Origin: Nitrososphaeria archaeon
Lineage (GTDB): Archaea > Thermoproteota > Nitrososphaeria > Nitrososphaerales > JAAOZN01
Length of the DNA stretch: 64,000 nucleotides
NCBI GenBank assembly: GCA_029775855.1
Contig: JARVJZ010000001.1
Location: forward strand, 192,001-256,000
Direction of reading: 5' to 3'
Below are positions 9,437 through 37,731 of this stretch, one piece after another (positions within the stretch are counted from its first letter, which is position 1; the number at the start of each line of letters is the position of its first letter). Position numbers and translations under genes: made by a program. A model generated the notes under the pieces. It saw only the letters and a program-made list of their open reading frames with translations, made no database searches and had not been told where the DNA came from.

Positions 9437-10147
9437 GTGTCCCAACCTAAGCTCATCAGTTGGTACAATAATGAGCTTCAACAAAAGTTAGGTGAAATCC
9501 CTGTACCGACTTTAATGCTCATCGAAGGTTCTAATGATACTGGTAAGAGTGTGTTTGCTCAGCAGCTGACTTATGGTGCATTGCGCAGCGGTCTGAAGGT
9601 TTCATACATCACGACGGAGAATATGGTTAAAAGTCTTATCTCACAGATGCTAAGCCTTTCTTTTGATGTTCGACAATATTTTCTAAAAGGTGAGTTAAAG
9701 ATATTTCCATTACATGTTGAAAACATCGATTGGAGGGAAGAGATTGCTAATCTTTTCTTAGAAGTTATTTCAAGCTACCTTAACAATAGATGCGCCGCGA
9801 GTGTGGTTATAATAGATTCATTAACCTATATGATAACTTATGCTAATGAAGAAGGTGTCTTAACATTCTTTTCTAGCTTAAGAAACATATGTGATAAGCA
9901 GCGTAAAACAGTGATTCTCACTGTACATCCATATGCATTTTCCCAAGAGCTTCTGATCAGAGTGAGATCGATATGTGATGGGCATCTTATCTTAGAGATC
10001 AAGACTGTTGGTGACAAAATAGTTAGAATGCTTTTTGCCTCTAAGCTTAGAGGTGTTATCGGCGGTTCAGGTTCTGTAATAGTTGCATTTGAAGTCGATC
10101 CAGCTTTTGGAATAAAGGTGATTCCTTATTCGCAGGCTAGGGCGTAA
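9437..10147 (+). CDS. arlH: ArlH KaiC-like ATPase
   Basis: Walker A GSNDTGKS, YITTE, IIDSLT, LTVHP, FEVDPAFGIKVIP. Confidence 0.95.
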   Translation: MSQPKLISWYNNELQQKLGEIPVPTLMLIEGSNDTGKSVFAQQLTYGALRSGLKVSYITTENMVKSLISQMLSLSFDVRQYFLKGELKIFPLHVENIDWREEIANLFLEVISSYLNNRCAASVVIIDSLTYMITYANEEGVLTFFSSLRNICDKQRKTVILTVHPYAFSQELLIRVRSICDGHLILEIKTVGDKIVRMLFASKLRGVIGGSGSVIVAFEVDPAFGIKVIPYSQARA

Positions 10148-32162: not shown

Positions 32163-32468
32163 TTGGTCAAGGTAACAGTAATAGCAATGGGTAGTGTAAG
32201 AGAGGCATTAGGCGGCTGGGGCACAAGAACGGTAGAGGTGACTGGAAGCGTAAAAGACCTACTACTGACACTTAAGACTAAAGAAGGAAAGACCCTCTAT
32301 GAACTTATGGTTGACCCAGACGGCACAAAAGATCGATACTTGATACGCTGGGTTAGAGGAGATCTAAGACCATCCAACCTAATCTACCAAAAAGACCTTG
32401 AGATGCAACTAGAAGACGGAGACCGCATCTGGCTCCTGGATAACCCACCCGTTATAATAGGCGGCTAG
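32163..32468 (+). CDS. Ubiquitin-like MoaD/ThiS/SAMP protein
   Basis: Beta-grasp pattern, LEDGDRI, C-terminal GG (PPVIIGG). Confidence 0.85.
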   Translation: MVKVTVIAMGSVREALGGWGTRTVEVTGSVKDLLLTLKTKEGKTLYELMVDPDGTKDRYLIRWVRGDLRPSNLIYQKDLEMQLEDGDRIWLLDNPPVIIGG

Positions 32469-32470
32469 TC

Positions 32471-32556
32471 TGTCAAAAAACGACAAATCAGATAGCGGTG
32501 CTGCCATTTATAGACAAGTTTATAAACACCCTAAGATATACTCATTAAGACAAGTT
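32471..32556 (+). promoter_or_regulatory. Putative promoter/operator of the HTH-V4R operon
   Basis: TATA-like TTTATAAA 32519-32526; TGTC-N7-GACA palindrome 32471-32485; AGACAAGTT direct repeats 32512-32520 and 32548-32556. Confidence 0.5.
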
Positions 32557-32559
32557 GGT

Positions 32560-33237
32560 TTGCTGAAAATGTTGAATAAATCGGGATTTGAAGTAGATGA
32601 TATCGACTTAAAGATCATTCAAGTCTTAGTAAAAAATGCAAGGGCAGACTTCAAAGATATCGCAGAAATTGTTGGTGTTTCAGACCGAACTGTTGCAAGA
32701 AGAATAGAGCGCTTGGAAAAGAATAAAGTAATCAGAGGGTATCACGTCGATTTAGATCAAGAAGCGTTAATGCAACAAGGCATTAACCTTCCAGAATGTG
32801 ATGAATACGTGAAGTTGAGCCGCCTAGAGTGGGAGGAGCTCTGGAATGCGCTTGGAAAGATAATGGGAAGCGGGCTTGGCATCTTGCTTTTCCACGCGGG
32901 GAAGGCTGTAGGCTCAGAAATAGGCTCAAAGCTGCTTAAACGATACATAGAGCCATCAACTGCGTTAAATATGCTGCCAACGATGCTCGTTGGACGAGGA
33001 TGTAAAGAATGTAGGCTAATCGACTTAAATCAAGATAAAGGTTTGGGCAAGCTTGAAGTAGTAAAGCAGGGTATAACCATCCAGAAAAACACTGGCATTT
33101 TCTTAGAGTGGCTAAGAGGTCTAATTTCAGGAGCCCTAGAGACAATATTAGGTAAGAAGATTGATGTTGTCGAAGATTCATCGGTAGCTGACCGCATAAC
33201 TTACAGATTCAGCCAAGGTGGTGATATAAAAACTTGA
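32560..33237 (+). CDS. Lrp/AsnC-type HTH fused to V4R-like ligand-binding domain
   Basis: DDIDLKIIQVL..NAR....IAEIVGVSDRTVARRIERLE...IRGY; C-terminal LLFHAGKAVG, WLRGLISGALE; V4R C-terminal Cys pair absent. Confidence 0.82.
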   Translation: MLKMLNKSGFEVDDIDLKIIQVLVKNARADFKDIAEIVGVSDRTVARRIERLEKNKVIRGYHVDLDQEALMQQGINLPECDEYVKLSRLEWEELWNALGKIMGSGLGILLFHAGKAVGSEIGSKLLKRYIEPSTALNMLPTMLVGRGCKECRLIDLNQDKGLGKLEVVKQGITIQKNTGIFLEWLRGLISGALETILGKKIDVVEDSSVADRITYRFSQGGDIKT

Positions 33238-33926
33238 ACAGCCAGAGGGTAAAGACTGGTGTAGATAGACTCGACTACATACTTAAGGGCGGAATACCAA
33301 GAGGTTCAGTGGTGCTCTTAGCTGGCGGACCTGGCACAGGCAAGACCATATTATCTGCACGCTTCCTCTACAGCGGTATAGTTGATTATAATGAAGGCGG
33401 GATGTATGTGAGCTTCACAGAGACACGGGAAGCATTCAAAAACTATATGTTAAACTTTGGCTGGAACTTTGACGAGCTCGAGAAGAAAGGACTCTTCACT
33501 TTTCTAGACCTCTTCTCCACATCTGAAGAAGGCTTAGATCACGTCATCAAAACCATTTTAGAACCGATCTCTATACGGAAGATAAAACGGTTAGTGATCG
33601 ACTCTGTCACAGCACTCTCAATAAGCCTAGGTGAGAGATACAAGGTTAGGAACATTGTATATCTTCTGAAGCAGCTCCTCAAGCAGACTGACTGCACCTC
33701 AATATTCGTAGCCGAAGTGCCCTTCGGCTACCCTATGATGGGTGTAGGGATTGAAGAGTTCGTTGTTGATGGTGTCATAGTTTTAGAGCTGCAGCGTGAA
33801 GGCTATGAGTTTAGAAGGAGGATTGCCGTTCTTAAGATGCGTGGAACAGAGCACGACCTAAAATACTATAGATTCGACATCCAGCATACAATCGGACTCA
33901 AGATAATGCCTATACTCGCGGAGTAG
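33234..33926 (+). CDS. Single-domain KaiC/RecA-superfamily ATPase
   Basis: KTGVDRLD..LKGGIP, Walker A GGPGTGKT, LVIDS, EEFVVDGVI, LKMRGT. Confidence 0.93.
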   Translation: MNSQRVKTGVDRLDYILKGGIPRGSVVLLAGGPGTGKTILSARFLYSGIVDYNEGGMYVSFTETREAFKNYMLNFGWNFDELEKKGLFTFLDLFSTSEEGLDHVIKTILEPISIRKIKRLVIDSVTALSISLGERYKVRNIVYLLKQLLKQTDCTSIFVAEVPFGYPMMGVGIEEFVVDGVIVLELQREGYEFRRRIAVLKMRGTEHDLKYYRFDIQHTIGLKIMPILAE

Positions 33927-33935
33927 GATCTAAGT

Positions 33936-35543
33936 TTGGATGAAAAAACTTTATACGAACAAACCTGCAGCTTCTTTGAAAAAAGTTTCTCCCGTCAACT
34001 CGAATTCAACCAAACGCAGCTTCAAGAGCATCTTAAACGATGGCAGCAAACGATAACCTCAAAGCGGATAGCTGCAAGCACAGAGCGTAGAGAGCAGGTG
34101 CCTCTCACAGAATATTACGATTATCAAGAGATGATTGAATTCGGGAATGCTCTTCAAAAGCTTGTAGAACAAAACGTAAGGGGAAAAGATGAGCTACTAG
34201 CTGATTATTACTGCCGGTTAGCAGGAAAGATCAAATATATTGTAGAAGGCGCTCTCCCTTACGAGTTAGCATTTGTAGTGAAGACTACTGGTTCAACTGG
34301 TAATAGCAAATGGCTGGTGCACGGTGACCTCTTCTGGGAAAACTTTCGACTCGACTCGATAGCTACTGGCATCCTTGCTTGTAGCGAAACATGGGGCAAG
34401 ACGAAATATCAAATAGGTGATAAAGGTCTCAATGTAGTCGCTCCAGTACCTTACTTAAGTGGTTGGTCAATAAAGTCTGTCATACCCTACTTTCAACCAG
34501 TCCCACCATTAGAAGTTACAGACAATATCCCGGACACTAGAAGAAAGTTCTACCTTGCTCTCAAGGTGATGGAGAAGGGTGAAAAAATTGTTGTTGGCGG
34601 AGCAAACGCAGCAACCTTCTACATGCTTTTCAGATACTTCACAGACCAAACAGCCTTCTTCAAAGACCTTTACAAGTCTGTAAATGTTAGTCTAATAAAA
34701 TTCTACTTCTTATACAGAATGATTCAAAGCTTATTCAAATCAAGAAACATCGTACCCATCTTAGATGTCTTCCCTCTTAAAGGAGCCATGGTTGGAGGAG
34801 CCGACACAAAGGTCTACTGTGAATTCTTTAAGAACACCTTTGGCTTTGTTCCATTAAACATATATGGTTCTTCTGAAGCCGGTATAGCTTTCTTAGGTAC
34901 ACCTGATGATAGACTTAATCTTATTCCAAATCTCCGCTCGGGATATTATGAATTTGTTAATGATCTTGGAGAAATATTGGCGTTAAATGAGGTTAAGAAA
35001 GATGAGGTGTATGAATTGGTGGTGTCTCCTTTTGGCTCAGGTTTGGTTAGATACAGAAGTGGAGACCTCTTCAAAGTGGTAAAGATAAGAGATGACGGTT
35101 TACCAATCTTCTCCTGCGAGGGTAGGAAGATTAACGTCATCGACATATACGGCTACTTTAGGCTCACAGAAGGGCTTATTGCCGAAGCACTTGCTCAAGC
35201 CGGGTTAAAAAACTCCGACAAATGGGCTGTCATAAAACAATCTACACCAGAAGAACACATACACTTCCTAATGGAGAAGGAATGGGAGTATTCAGAAGAG
35301 GAAGCTGAAAAACAAATATTTCGCGCACTCATAAACGTCTCAGATGAATTTGCGCAATATATAAGGGTGTTTAGAATAAAGAAGCCTTCGCAGATAATCA
35401 AAGTTGAATATCTAAAACAAGGTGCATTCACTAGATACATAATTCGAGCAACTAAACTTGGATTACCTTTGGGCCAACTTAAAGTTCCAAAGATAATACC
35501 AATGGATAGAGCTGACATATTTGACCTTATAAAGAGTGTATAA
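33936..35543 (+). CDS. GH3-family acyl-acid amido synthetase (ANL adenylating superfamily)
   Basis: VPLTEYYDY, P-loop KTTGSTGNSK, YGSSE, YYEF, YELVVS..SGLVRYRSGD, C-terminal GQLKVPKI. Confidence 0.88.
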   Translation: MDEKTLYEQTCSFFEKSFSRQLEFNQTQLQEHLKRWQQTITSKRIAASTERREQVPLTEYYDYQEMIEFGNALQKLVEQNVRGKDELLADYYCRLAGKIKYIVEGALPYELAFVVKTTGSTGNSKWLVHGDLFWENFRLDSIATGILACSETWGKTKYQIGDKGLNVVAPVPYLSGWSIKSVIPYFQPVPPLEVTDNIPDTRRKFYLALKVMEKGEKIVVGGANAATFYMLFRYFTDQTAFFKDLYKSVNVSLIKFYFLYRMIQSLFKSRNIVPILDVFPLKGAMVGGADTKVYCEFFKNTFGFVPLNIYGSSEAGIAFLGTPDDRLNLIPNLRSGYYEFVNDLGEILALNEVKKDEVYELVVSPFGSGLVRYRSGDLFKVVKIRDDGLPIFSCEGRKINVIDIYGYFRLTEGLIAEALAQAGLKNSDKWAVIKQSTPEEHIHFLMEKEWEYSEEEAEKQIFRALINVSDEFAQYIRVFRIKKPSQIIKVEYLKQGAFTRYIIRATKLGLPLGQLKVPKIIPMDRADIFDLIKSV

Positions 35544-37626
35544 GATGAGTACAGCACTGCTATGGTCAAGCCAGTATATTGCTGCCGTAATAATAGGGTT
35601 AGCGCTCGCTCTACGTATCTTACAAAAAGAACCTAGGGTGCTGGTGAACTATCTTTTGCTAATTTATTCGCTACTAGTGTCAATTTGGTCTTGCTCTGTC
35701 TTTATACATAGAACTACTCCATATCTTGATCTATCGATGCTTGCATTTAGAATAGGTGCGATCTCACTCTTCTTAGCTCAGGGAACATATTTATCTATGG
35801 CATTTTCCATCCGTTCACTTAAAAAACGATACTTGTTTATGATTTTACCGGCATTGGTAGTCTCAATAATCTATCTTGGCTTCGGCGACTTCACATTTAC
35901 CTACACAAGCTTTGGTTGGTCATATCGCTTGGCTGGTGATTTATTTTCACAGAGTATACGTGGGTTGACTAACGAAGCCTATAACTTTGCTATTCTCTTA
36001 ACACTTTACTCGTTATATAAAGGAGCAGCTAGTCCTGTGTTAAAACGTAAATTAAAGTTCCTATTACTTCCTTACTTGACCTTTCAGTTTATTGGCTTTT
36101 CGGCAACAAACCTTATATTAATAGTGAGTGAGGACGTGCCGCCCTTTGGAGGAATGCTGCATATAGGGACGTTTATAACTATGAGCTATGCGCTAACTCT
36201 CTCACCTAAACCTTTGATAGCCTACGCATCAGCTTCAGATACGTCTGGGAGATATACCCGCTTTCTAAACCAACTACTTGATAAGTTGCCCGGAGAAGCA
36301 TTAGGCCAAAAGTATGTCCTCTTTTCCCAGTTCCTAAAGCAAACTAACATAGATAAATGTGTATCATATATAGGTGACCGACCGTTTTTCAAGGCAAGAA
36401 TCCAATTAGACTTGGTATTAAGTATTGAGAAGACGCTCGACTATTTATGTGAAATCAAATCAATTTCCCTTTTGGATAGCTATCTACCTGTCATAAATGC
36501 TGCCTATACGAGTCTATCTGCTTCGGAAAGGCAGAAGTTAGATGAGGTGATCTTGAAGCATGCGAAGTTTCTGATGGAATGTGATGTATTTTATGGTGTA
36601 GATGGAGGAAGACTCCTGCAGAAGGTTGAGGTAGACAGTAGCTTAAATAGTATCCAAGATACAGAAGCCGCTTTAAGAATATACAAGAGGATACTGCTTG
36701 CAACCTTTACGGAGTTTAACAGCGTTTTAGGTAGCGAGTTCCTCAACCGCCTCCTTCTCTACGATGTTTTGAAGGATATAGAATTGGAGGCTGACGGTTA
36801 CATTTCGATAACAAACTGCTTAGAGAAGCATAAGAATGACCCGCCTGTAAAGATTATAACATTGTTCAACAGTTTCCTCTCTCAAGCTATATCTCAAGTC
36901 GAAGACACAGCGCCAAGGACCGCTAGCGTAATATTAGGCAAGATAAATAGAGTCCTGGAGTTAAACTGGCGCCGCGCGTCAAAATTAGGTATCGTATCCG
37001 CTCTGAGAATTGCCCTCGGTGATTTGGTTTCTGAGCCAATAACCATACCTTTGCTAAATGAACCTATAACCACAGACACCTTTAGAGCTTCGTCAATCAT
37101 ACTAGGCAAATCTATAGAAGAGGTTGCAGGGAAGGTTATCCTCTTAGAGTTCACAACACCAATACCTCTACAGCTCGCTGCAAGAAGGTTAGCAGTAGAA
37201 GCGCTGGCAAAAGGATATGATGTGGTAGTCTTCACTAGAAAGGGTAGTGTGGTCGAAGAATCCCTCACACCATTAGACGTGAAATATATTTACCTCACAC
37301 TAATACCTCACACAGAAAAGGAAGGAGGCAAATCCTATGTCCAGCTCAGAGATCCAACCGAAGTGTTAACCGCACTTAGCGAGCTAAGCCCATCTGAGGC
37401 ATCACTCATACTCTTTGACAACCTCACCGACCTAATCCTAACAACCGGCTTCGACAAAACATACACCCTTCTGCGACACGTGGTTGAACTAGCGGCGGAG
37501 ACGAAAGCGGTCATATTACTCGGACTCAACAAAGACGCACACGAAAAGCAGCAAGTAGCCGCCTTAGAAGCCCTAGTAAACCTAACTATAAACCTAGAAA
37601 AGGCAGCTAAACTGTTAGAGCGTTAA
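35536..37626 (+). CDS. HisKA_7TM-like membrane sensor fused to a helical linker and a C-terminal DUF835 (inactive KaiC-like) domain
   Basis: About 7 TM in the first 225 aa; C-terminal VVFTRKGS, LILFDNLTDLILTTGFDKTY, AHE....LE.L typical of DUF835; no His-kinase H-box seen. Confidence 0.72.
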   Translation: MYKMSTALLWSSQYIAAVIIGLALALRILQKEPRVLVNYLLLIYSLLVSIWSCSVFIHRTTPYLDLSMLAFRIGAISLFLAQGTYLSMAFSIRSLKKRYLFMILPALVVSIIYLGFGDFTFTYTSFGWSYRLAGDLFSQSIRGLTNEAYNFAILLTLYSLYKGAASPVLKRKLKFLLLPYLTFQFIGFSATNLILIVSEDVPPFGGMLHIGTFITMSYALTLSPKPLIAYASASDTSGRYTRFLNQLLDKLPGEALGQKYVLFSQFLKQTNIDKCVSYIGDRPFFKARIQLDLVLSIEKTLDYLCEIKSISLLDSYLPVINAAYTSLSASERQKLDEVILKHAKFLMECDVFYGVDGGRLLQKVEVDSSLNSIQDTEAALRIYKRILLATFTEFNSVLGSEFLNRLLLYDVLKDIELEADGYISITNCLEKHKNDPPVKIITLFNSFLSQAISQVEDTAPRTASVILGKINRVLELNWRRASKLGIVSALRIALGDLVSEPITIPLLNEPITTDTFRASSIILGKSIEEVAGKVILLEFTTPIPLQLAARRLAVEALAKGYDVVVFTRKGSVVEESLTPLDVKYIYLTLIPHTEKEGGKSYVQLRDPTEVLTALSELSPSEASLILFDNLTDLILTTGFDKTYTLLRHVVELAAETKAVILLGLNKDAHEKQQVAALEALVNLTINLEKAAKLLER

Positions 37627-37632
37627 CCAAAA

Positions 37633-37731
37633 TGGTGGACCGGGGGGGATTCGAACCCCCGACCTCCCGCGTGCGAGGCGGGCGTCTGCACCAGCCACAG
37701 CAGACTGCTCATACCACTGAACTACCGGCCC
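37633..37731 (-). tRNA. tRNA-Ala(CGC) with 23-nt intron at non-canonical position 23/24 (37686-37708), CCA encoded
   Basis: Acceptor GGGCCGG/CCGGTCC (G3:U70), anticodon arm CCCGC-CTCGCAC-GCGGG, T arm GGGGG-TTCGAAT-CCCCC; removing the intron restores D stem GTTC/GAAC and gives 76 nt. Confidence 0.94.

Follow-up and report, generated by a model that had tools for sequence, protein, structure and literature searches.

A GH3-like amido synthetase gene paired with a seven-transmembrane sensor gene in archaea: a candidate signaling module with KaiC or histidine kinase output

Organization of the locus

The window analyzed here is a stretch of 64,000 nucleotides from the 1.5 Mb assembly, in six contigs, of a Nitrososphaeria archaeon (GCA_029775855.1, contig JARVJZ010000001.1, positions 192,001 to 256,000 of the forward strand), hereafter G000; G-numbers denote genomes, L-numbers loci and f-numbers families, and positions are those of the window. 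According to the list of open reading frames (ORFs) and their translations, four abutting ORFs on the plus strand fill positions 32560-37626 and make up the cassette that is the subject of this study. They encode a transcription regulator with a helix-turn-helix and a V4R-type domain (HTH-V4R; 32560-33237, 225 amino acids), a single-domain KaiC-family ATPase (33234-33926, 230 amino acids), a GH3-like, adenylate-forming acyl-acid amido synthetase predicted to be cytoplasmic (33936-35543, 535 amino acids) and a membrane sensor (35536-37626, 696 amino acids) composed of a seven-transmembrane (7TM) domain, a helical domain that we call MID and a DUF835 domain. The regulator and KaiC genes overlap by 4 nucleotides, a 9-nucleotide gap separates KaiC from GH3, and the GH3 and sensor genes overlap by 8 nucleotides; a sequence-only reading of the same DNA, which had described four co-oriented genes with overlapping or abutting ends, gave these junctions at the same coordinates. 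For the regulator gene, the ATG at 32569 is a likelier start than position 32560.

The GH3-like gene and the sensor gene are conserved as a pair

The invariant core of this cassette is GH3 together with the 7TM-MID sensor, and not GH3 together with KaiC: at every locus with both flanks visible the two genes are neighbors, and they co-occur genome by genome. Our survey comprised an order-level set of 61 genomes, a phylum-level set of 401 genomes (profile search, 8-kb flanks, tblastn and our own hidden Markov models, HMMs) and a metagenome scan that supplied 72 additional loci.

Within the order, GH3 was found in six of the 61 genomes. Two members of the window's genus, G001 and G002, carry all four genes in the order of the cassette, as does G018 from another family, in which GH3 is spread over two contig pieces (49% and 36% identical); in G003 the sensor stands at a contig end and GH3 is probably unassembled. 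The part of the sensor outside DUF835 was matched only in G000-G003 and G018, and a full-length match to the regulator only in G000, G001, G002 and G018. Distant GH3 matches in G020 and G030 (21-25% identity) were rejected as members of another GH3-like group, with no KaiC, HTH or sensor gene found nearby by tblastn, and both were left out of the counts together with L077 of G397. The latter locus (G397:C37:1-2847) holds a more canonical GH3-like gene of 466 amino acids, in which GH3_M, GH3_C and the GH3 N-domain are all matched; it lies 64 nucleotides after a gene for a KaiC-GvpD_bR2 fusion, has no 7TM sensor and constitutes a second, independent GH3-KaiC adjacency.

Across the phylum 20 of the 401 genomes are GH3-positive, including 14 of the 17 genomes of one genus and members of f33, f36 (two genomes), f52 and f21. 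The N-terminal 520 residues of the sensor were matched in 18 genomes, all 18 of them GH3-positive and each match lying beside GH3; the two genomes with GH3 only are G190, where GH3 is cut by the contig end, and G397, which holds the distant paralogue. The order HTH-V4R, KaiC, GH3, sensor is complete in 14 loci of f25 and f36, and five more loci are cut by contig ends but consistent with it. A sensor gene lies at most 600 bp from GH3 in 55 of the 72 loci from metagenomes and in 20 of the 21 from genomes, and every locus without an adjacent sensor is contig-cut on at least one side. Where at least 700 bp are present on both flanks of GH3, the sensor adjoins it in 26 of 26 metagenome and 18 of 18 genome loci (44 of 44). 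About 40% of the sensor-adjacent metagenome loci (22 of 55) are transcribed divergently, and in many loci GH3 sits between the regulator and KaiC genes on one side and the sensor on the other, with overlapping stops and starts.

Since metagenomes and other families of the phylum show the four genes in this order again, the arrangement is more than chance. Recurrence of the linkage was the test that the sequence-only reading had set beforehand, and it was seen on many metagenome contigs and in five or more other families of the phylum. One bin, G166, contains two complete cassettes (L070 on G166:C66 and L074 on G166:C90) whose GH3s are 74%, sensors 79% and KaiCs 92% identical; the bin either has two parallel channels or mixes strains.

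Three forms of output

Judged by domain content, the C-terminal transmitter of the sensor is interchangeable, and outputs of three kinds are attached to the same predicted input pair. The window's form uses DUF835 and KaiC. In a second form, seen in G140 and G217, residues ~6-500 of the sensor are common with those of the window sensor (30% identity) and are followed by HisKA and HATPase_c domains with a typical H-box; the sensors of L060 and L061 match HisKA at 5e-11 and 9e-9 and HATPase_c at 3.5e-27 and 5.5e-28, and no KaiC or HTH-V4R gene was found within 8 kb at these kinase-form loci, G140 and G217 included. In the metagenome sample the kinase form is frequent; it is placed either downstream with the same orientation or upstream with divergent orientation. 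In the third form (L094) KaiC and then GH3 are followed by a stand-alone 7TM protein of 234 amino acids, a short-MID-DUF835 protein, a 626-amino-acid protein ending in DUF835 and a MEDS-PadR regulator. MID is conserved in the DUF835 and histidine kinase forms and is shorter in the third.

Among sensor-adjacent loci with at least 800 bp of upstream sequence, a kinase and an upstream KaiC occur together in none. The metagenome loci of this kind comprise 15 with a kinase only, 10 with KaiC only and 12 with neither, and the genome loci two with a kinase only and 16 with KaiC only; DUF835 accompanies KaiC in 7 of the 10 and 15 of the 16 KaiC-only loci, respectively. In a quick IQ-TREE phylogeny of GH3 (74 rows), the kinase-linked enzymes form one clade of 35 rows with a Shimodaira-Hasegawa-like approximate likelihood ratio (SH-aLRT) support of 100, the kinase being visible in 22 rows and the others truncated. 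The GH3s of the third form make up a clade of 14 rows (support 98), those of the window's form are spread over several groups, and family f36 has both the window's form and the kinase form. The coupling of GH3 to a KaiC/DUF835 module, which had been proposed from the window, thus holds for the window's own form but is one of three outputs, the obligate partner of GH3 being the 7TM-MID sensor.

Some of these loci have further neighbors. At L094:3858-5024 and, arranged alike, at L133, MscS-like and rhomboid genes precede the third-form cassettes, and at L083 a UbiA prenyltransferase gene lies between the sensor and a separate histidine kinase. In divergent kinase loci (L060:6479-7631, L115:6676-7828 and L121:6584-7749) a gene for a receiver domain and a pair of small ORFs are convergent with GH3 at its 3' end; the small ORFs, of ~100 and ~130 amino acids, belong to no Pfam family and are conserved partners.

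The GH3-like enzyme

By homology, the window enzyme is a distant GH3-like amido synthetase with a predicted activity. It matches GH3_M at 1.6e-8 (35 bits against a Pfam cut-off of 23.6), while GH3_C (0.0096) and the GH3 N-domain (0.63) fall under their Pfam cut-offs, and a phmmer search matched JAR1 at 1.2e-7. A profile of 29 orthologues gave 10 matches in the PDB at E up to 0.01, all 10 of them plant GH3 enzymes, the best being GH3.12 (1.2e-12). The catalytic motifs that had been quoted for this protein (TTGSTGNSK, YGSSE, RYRSGD and GQLKVPK) are all present in the translation, and in the profile alignment the last three pair with YGSSE, RMRVGD and GQYKTPR of GH3.12, as do the motifs of the orthologue family (YGSTE, RYxxGD and GQxKPPK). 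The P-loop-like KT(S/T)G(S/T)TGxxKW, which by inspection we take to be nucleotide-binding motif 1, is invariant or nearly so across the 29 orthologues.

A database of 5.8 billion proteins yielded 45 homologues from Nitrososphaerales, Thermoplasmatota and Bathyarchaeia, about 40 of them full-length (~535 amino acids) and 35-84% identical; orthologues carry the source name 'GH3 auxin-responsive promoter family protein'. The group of orthologues is small, with ~10 full-length clusters (50% identity) scoring 578-766 bits among 1.84 billion representatives, followed by a gap down to ~210 bits. Below that gap lies a second-tier GH3-like family (P0109, P0126 and P0130 among its members) at ~110-210 bits to the profile. 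Some of its proteins have an extra N-terminal membrane domain of ~190 amino acids with an RHPG motif, which presumably resembles isoprenylcysteine or phospholipid carboxyl-methyltransferase-type domains, and such fusions hint at lipophilic carboxylate substrates in the wider GH3-like clade. When GH3 was modeled in complex with the MID of the sensor (residues 232-525), the score was 0.01, compared with a mark of 0.32, which speaks neither way.

The 7TM-MID-DUF835 sensor

The AlphaFold2 (AF2) model of the sensor (predicted local distance difference test, pLDDT, 85.1) has seven transmembrane (TM) helices, a helical region at 236-500 and an alpha/beta domain at 534-695. The 7TM domain corresponds to residues 1-235 (35536-36240), the cytoplasmic, helical MID domain to residues ~236-520 (36241-37095) and the C-terminal DUF835 domain to 37096-37626. 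The K/R-rich loops lie on alternating sides, giving an N-out/C-in topology, and the model has short loops only and no large extracellular domain. Conservation is concentrated on the outer face, where a conserved beta hairpin (FGWSY, residues 118-133) stands between TM4 and TM5 and the outer loops carry the motifs HRxxP and PPxGG. Over 23 sensors G127, W128 and G206 show no variation, while R59, P62, P202 and G205 are conserved to 90% or more, and these top-conserved positions (R59/P62, G127/W128 and P202/G205/G206) sit in three outer loops.

In VIA-align the 7TM part superposes on bundles of G-protein-coupled receptors (GPCRs) with a Z of 19.4 and a root-mean-square deviation of 2.8 A over 204 residues (GABA-B receptors, Z 16.9-17.3); the Z exceeds the tool's typical range for unrelated helical bundles, although a common fold says nothing of function. 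HisKA_7TM (PF16927) gave no match to the window sensor at E up to 10 and matches four of 23 homologous sensors, at best 2.9e-5. MID matches no known family: it gave no Pfam match and no usable ESM Atlas match, and fold searches of the PDB returned no match that covers it, MID not having been searched as a separate domain, so that a known fold is possible. DUF835 (PF05763) is matched at 1.1e-8 over residues 556-678 (35.4 bits against a cut-off of 33.1) and is the only DUF835 above cut-off in G000. Foldseek places this domain with PH0250 (2ekd, 3.7e-3) and then with RadA, Rad51, DnaB and KaiC; it has a RecA/KaiC-like fold and lacks the GxxGxGKT motif, that is, Walker A.

KaiC, the HTH-V4R regulator and its upstream region

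KaiC (PF06745, 2.1e-66) forms one domain of 230 amino acids. Its Walker A (GGPGTGKT), Walker B (RLVIDS) and conserved Glu are kept in 12 cassette KaiCs, and it looks active. It stays under the NCBIfam equivalog cut-offs for circ_KaiC (119.9 against 546), PRK09302 (158.8 against 408) and ArlH (75 against 215), and by these scores it is neither a circadian, double-domain KaiC nor ArlH.

In the regulator, residues ~13-59 form an AsnC-type winged helix-turn-helix (wHTH; HTH_AsnC, 8.2e-15) and residues ~88-220 a C-terminal ligand-type domain of V4R/H-NOX fold. V4R (PF02830) gave E of 0.068-0.12 on the window copy (12.9-13.7 bits against a cut-off of 31) and passes in three of nine orthologous C-terminal domains, with 41.6-49.3 bits (1.5e-11, 1.3e-10 and 5.2e-13). 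The AF2 model (pLDDT 77.4) led Foldseek from the C-terminal domain to Bet3, H-NOX and the sensor domains of PoxR, MopR and DmpR, with E from 2.7e-4 to 3e-3 and a template modeling score of up to 0.6 on the target. Of the domains that the sequence-only reading had named, the HTH (as HTH_AsnC), KaiC, GH3 (in GH3_M) and DUF835 exceed their HMM cut-offs, whereas V4R and HisKA_7TM are supported only through orthologues and fold.

A region of 91 nucleotides precedes the first gene and holds a TATA-like palindrome and two TGTC-N7-GACA sites, which are candidate operators of the HTH-V4R regulator. The first site, at 32471-32485, is an inverted repeat that is invariant in four close orthologous upstream regions; the second, at 32502-32516, has one mismatch (TGCC...GACA), lies just before the TATA-like box and is replaced by a perfect site at the same position in three close relatives. 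Both sites are kept in those three, while the adjacent alignment columns are variable. The palindrome GTTTATAAAC on the plus strand (32518-32527, ~35-40 nucleotides before the start codon) is a candidate archaeal promoter by analogy with known ones, and TTTATA(A/T)A is kept among the aligned upstream regions of close orthologues. A scan for sigma-70 promoters and terminators gave counts close to those of shuffled sequence and, for an archaeon, has no relevance. With at most one mismatch, TGTC-N7-GACA occurs 14 times in 3450 nucleotides upstream of 23 HTH-V4R genes against 78 times in 300,972 nucleotides of whole loci, and it is present in 10 of the 23 upstream regions (shuffles: mean 0.9, maximum 5). 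This enrichment upstream of the regulator gene suggests that the HTH-V4R protein may autoregulate its own operon through the candidate sites.

Expression and neighboring genes

The stretch was found as DNA in hot-spring metagenomes, and parts of it in two sediment metatranscriptome runs of one study. The RNA-library contigs from these two runs cover 32749-33842 (with the HTH/KaiC junction), 33882-34072 (with the KaiC/GH3 junction) and 36547-36789, the uncovered stretches (34073-36546 and others) being uninformative. Two of the three junctions are bridged in this way, which weakly suggests co-transcription.

The cassette is flanked by housekeeping genes. Reading of the translations identified ndk, aIF5B and a 101-amino-acid ORF upstream, and aIF1A, a Rio kinase, a KH protein and topoisomerase VI B and A downstream. 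The operon is bounded by a convergent tRNA gene on the minus strand (37633-37731), which ARAGORN reports as 99 nucleotides long with an undetermined 4-base anticodon and which is probably an intron-containing archaeal tRNA; its part at 37633-37685 alone is matched by many RNA-library contigs of other organisms, as expected for a conserved part of a tRNA.

The 101-amino-acid ORF (32163-32468, plus strand) lies directly upstream of the cassette, ends in Gly-Gly and matches nothing in Pfam or NCBIfam; it may be a small beta-grasp, ubiquitin-like protein of the SAMP/MoaD/ThiS type. It is present in G001 (86% identity) and was not found at the G002 locus or in distant cassettes. Because it is absent from the G002 locus and from every distant cassette, we rejected it as a protein substrate of GH3. 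Elsewhere in the window, a 240-amino-acid ORF at 9488-10126 on the plus strand (G000:C1:201488-202126) has a weak KaiC match (9.4e-23) and a sub-threshold DUF835 match (3.5e-6), and is a second KaiC-like gene of the window, possibly an inactivated one.

Relation to known systems

Pairs of an autoinducer synthase and a polytopic membrane sensor kinase are known from bacteria (CqsA/CqsS, LuxM/LuxN and LqsA/LqsS). As in those pairs, the gene of a cytoplasmic enzyme lies beside that of a multi-pass sensor without a large periplasmic domain, and the sensor of the kinase form is a HisKA-HATPase kinase, near which a stand-alone receiver is sometimes encoded. The cassette differs in its enzyme, which is a GH3/ANL adenylating amido synthetase and not LuxI, LuxM or a synthase of the pyridoxal phosphate type, and in its sensor, a GPCR-shaped 7TM bundle followed by MID; the transmitter in the window is DUF835 with KaiC and no kinase.

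The products of plant GH3 enzymes are hormone conjugates. The cassette enzyme shares sequence homology (1.2e-12 to 2.6e-7) with these proteins (JAR1, GH3.12/PBS3 and GH3.5/6), and YGS(S/T)E, RYxxGD and GQxKxP(K/R) are conserved between them. In contrast to the plant enzymes, it passes Pfam in the middle domain only, has a divergent N-domain, belongs to a small orthologous group and has a receptor as its gene context. A prokaryotic counterpart is OlsH, a planctomycete GH3-like lyso-ornithine lipid synthase that is reported to join a free fatty acid to ornithine with ATP and Mg2+ (PMC12493201); we liken the two by that description. Unlike the cassette enzyme, OlsH is reported there from an operon with the acyltransferase OlsI and not with a sensor, and the accompanying survey covered bacterial genomes only (PMC12493201).

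A KaiC-centered archaeal signaling network was proposed by Makarova, Galperin and Koonin in 2017, as cited in PMC5847659, which treats DUF835 and MEDS as iKaiC. The window resembles the network in placing a single-domain KaiC beside an inactivated KaiC-like DUF835 ('iKaiC') and a transcription factor (PMC5847659), and departs from it in having a defined input side (the 7TM-MID sensor and GH3) that is alternatively wired to a histidine kinase. The regulator shares the fold of its C-terminal domain with H-NOX/Bet3 and with the V4R sensory domains of PoxR, MopR and DmpR, and three orthologues pass Pfam V4R; unlike in PoxR, MopR and DmpR, this domain is fused to an AsnC-type wHTH and not to a sigma-54 AAA+ activator, and the window copy is without the conserved cysteines. 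HisKA_7TM kinases (PF16927) are similar in that a 7TM domain precedes HisKA-HATPase in the kinase form and four of the 23 sensors match the family, whereas the window sensor is unmatched, has the extra MID of 285 residues and ends in DUF835.

In the literature searched, outside of which stands Makarova et al. 2017, we found no description linking an archaeal GH3 to KaiC, to DUF835 or to a sensor kinase; the author of the sequence-only reading knew of no described system coupling GH3 to a KaiC/DUF835 module. The data point to an undescribed small-molecule signaling module, in which a putative signal enzyme and a putative receptor, both unusual, would feed into interchangeable outputs, KaiC or a kinase.

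A possible signal synthase-receptor pair and its alternatives

The reading that we favor, with a probability of roughly 0.45, is that the cassette encodes a signal synthase-receptor pair for an acyl-amino-acid signal, working in the manner of bacterial autoinducer systems and feeding interchangeable transmitters. In the outline that the sequence-only reading had given, GH3 may make or quench the signal, the 7TM and V4R domains may bind its product, and DUF835 may relay to KaiC. In our version GH3 would adenylate a carboxylic acid of lipophilic character (fatty, isoprenoid or aromatic) and couple it with an amino acid. Because OlsH is reported to make N-acyl ornithine (PMC12493201), a lipophilic N-acyl amino acid is a reasonable guess for the product. 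The conjugate would exit the cell or partition into the membrane and be perceived by the conserved outer face or the bundle of the 7TM domain. MID would then relay the change to DUF835, which would alter the oligomeric state or the ATPase/autophosphorylation activity of the adjacent KaiC. KaiC, and perhaps also the conjugate by way of the V4R pocket, would set the activity of the HTH-V4R protein, and the latter would bind the TGTC-N7-GACA sites before its own operon in a feedback.

Several points weigh against this reading. The whole functional reading is derived from sequence, gene context and models; product export and binding of the product by 7TM or V4R are conjecture, and no exporter is conserved near the cassette. 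The acyl-binding N-terminal domain of GH3 is highly divergent (Pfam E 0.63), too much so for the substrate to be named. The outer-face motifs and GH3 are conserved across all three forms, which fits one common ligand better than diversified 'dialects'. In the window the V4R-fold domain is without the C-terminal cysteine pair (VVEDSSVADRITYRF against the CxxGxxxC pattern of L089, L090, L092 and L093), which is retained in the orthologues that pass Pfam V4R. The loci positive for TGTC-N7-GACA come from about four lineages, in which alone the motif is strict, and the g56 loci have variant half-sites and related TGTC-containing repeats in its place. The RNA evidence consists of contigs only, from one study and with possible DNA carry-over, and a contig spanning two genes is no proof of a single transcript. 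Sampling was uneven as well: since one genus supplies 14 of the 20 positive genomes and several metagenome loci are near-identical, the loci are not independent. The patterns of the metagenome scan came from one closer GH3 subgroup, and locus classes were defined by our own HMMs, the one for the histidine kinase having been built from two sequences.

It is possible, though we think it unlikely, that the pair serves to sense a substrate: the 7TM domain would detect an external or membrane-borne carboxylic acid, which GH3 would conjugate and so inactivate, trap or assimilate, and V4R may bind the same acid inside the cell. This corresponds to the quenching that the sequence-only reading had allowed for. 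The tight pairing of GH3 and sensor fits this explanation as well as it fits a synthase and its receptor, a sensor gene beside the gene that it controls being a common arrangement; plant GH3 enzymes, to which the PDB matches belong, also inactivate hormones by conjugation, and the V4R-fold domains of PoxR, MopR and DmpR sense phenols. However, the surroundings of the pair contain no conserved genes for transporters or catabolism, and its flanks vary by lineage, with translation factors in the window and MoCF, Mrr, helicase, rhomboid or UbiA elsewhere. The frequent position of GH3 between regulator/KaiC and sensor, with overlapping stops and starts, marks it as a component and not as a separate target.

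A lesser chance falls to a membrane homeostasis loop, in which GH3 would make an N-acyl amino acid lipid while the 7TM-MID part monitors a membrane property or the lipid level and tunes synthesis through KaiC/HTH-V4R or the kinase. The sensor is indeed a 7TM bundle with short loops, like membrane-state sensors, and the second-tier fusions to the RHPG membrane domain hint at lipophilic carboxylates. Yet the conserved outer-face beta hairpin and motifs resemble a ligand site, and a cassette so rare and patchy (20 of 401 genomes) would be odd for a core membrane function. Bacterial OlsH, reported to N-acylate ornithine with free fatty acids (PMC12493201), is a precedent, but no OlsI-like acyltransferase is conserved beside the GH3 gene.

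We regard it as improbable that the enzyme modifies proteins, adenylating a carboxylate of the sensor or of some other protein and amidating or AMPylating it, in an adaptation like the methylation of chemotaxis receptors. Such a role would agree with the strictness of the pairing and with the translational coupling to the sensor that is often seen, and with nothing else, but the 22 divergent loci among the 55 sensor-adjacent metagenome loci are not translationally coupled, and all characterized GH3 enzymes, from the PDB matches to OlsH (PMC12493201), act on small acyl acids. That the genes are mere neighbors without a common function is hardly credible and already contradicted by conservation, given the 44 of 44 fully assessable loci in which the pair is kept, the co-occurrence across 401 genomes and the persistence of the pair through changes of transmitter type and gene orientation.

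Returning to the signal synthase-receptor pair, its broadest version would be that archaea of several phyla possess a hormone- or autoinducer-like system, in which an acyl-amino-acid conjugate made by GH3 is perceived by a dedicated, GPCR-shaped 7TM receptor, whose output passes either through a classical histidine kinase or through a DUF835-KaiC relay to HTH-V4R. We put this forward tentatively and with more doubt than confidence; the lineages concerned, as named by the sources, are Nitrososphaerales, Bathyarchaeia and Thermoplasmatota.

Implications for archaeal signaling

To our knowledge, cell-cell or hormone-like signaling in archaea is barely known, and the proposal that KaiC-like ATPases are archaeal signaling hubs rests mostly on gene neighborhoods. 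The cassette offers a compact and complete test case: it joins a candidate signal enzyme to a putative receptor whose outer face is conserved, to a putative relay and to a regulator that has a candidate operator. Its source organisms are uncultured, and its strength lies in the conservation evidence and in the experimental handle that it gives on archaeal KaiC signaling. The sister kinase form is open to standard two-component tools, and a result obtained there could be transferred to the KaiC form. If the favored reading is true, GH3 chemistry, which serves plant hormones and one bacterial lipid pathway, would extend to archaeal signaling, and a GPCR-like 7TM fold would be tied to a defined prokaryotic ligand system. 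On the broadest version of that reading, the swap of transmitters would amount to a natural experiment, in which KaiC/iKaiC modules are functionally equivalent to two-component transmitters.

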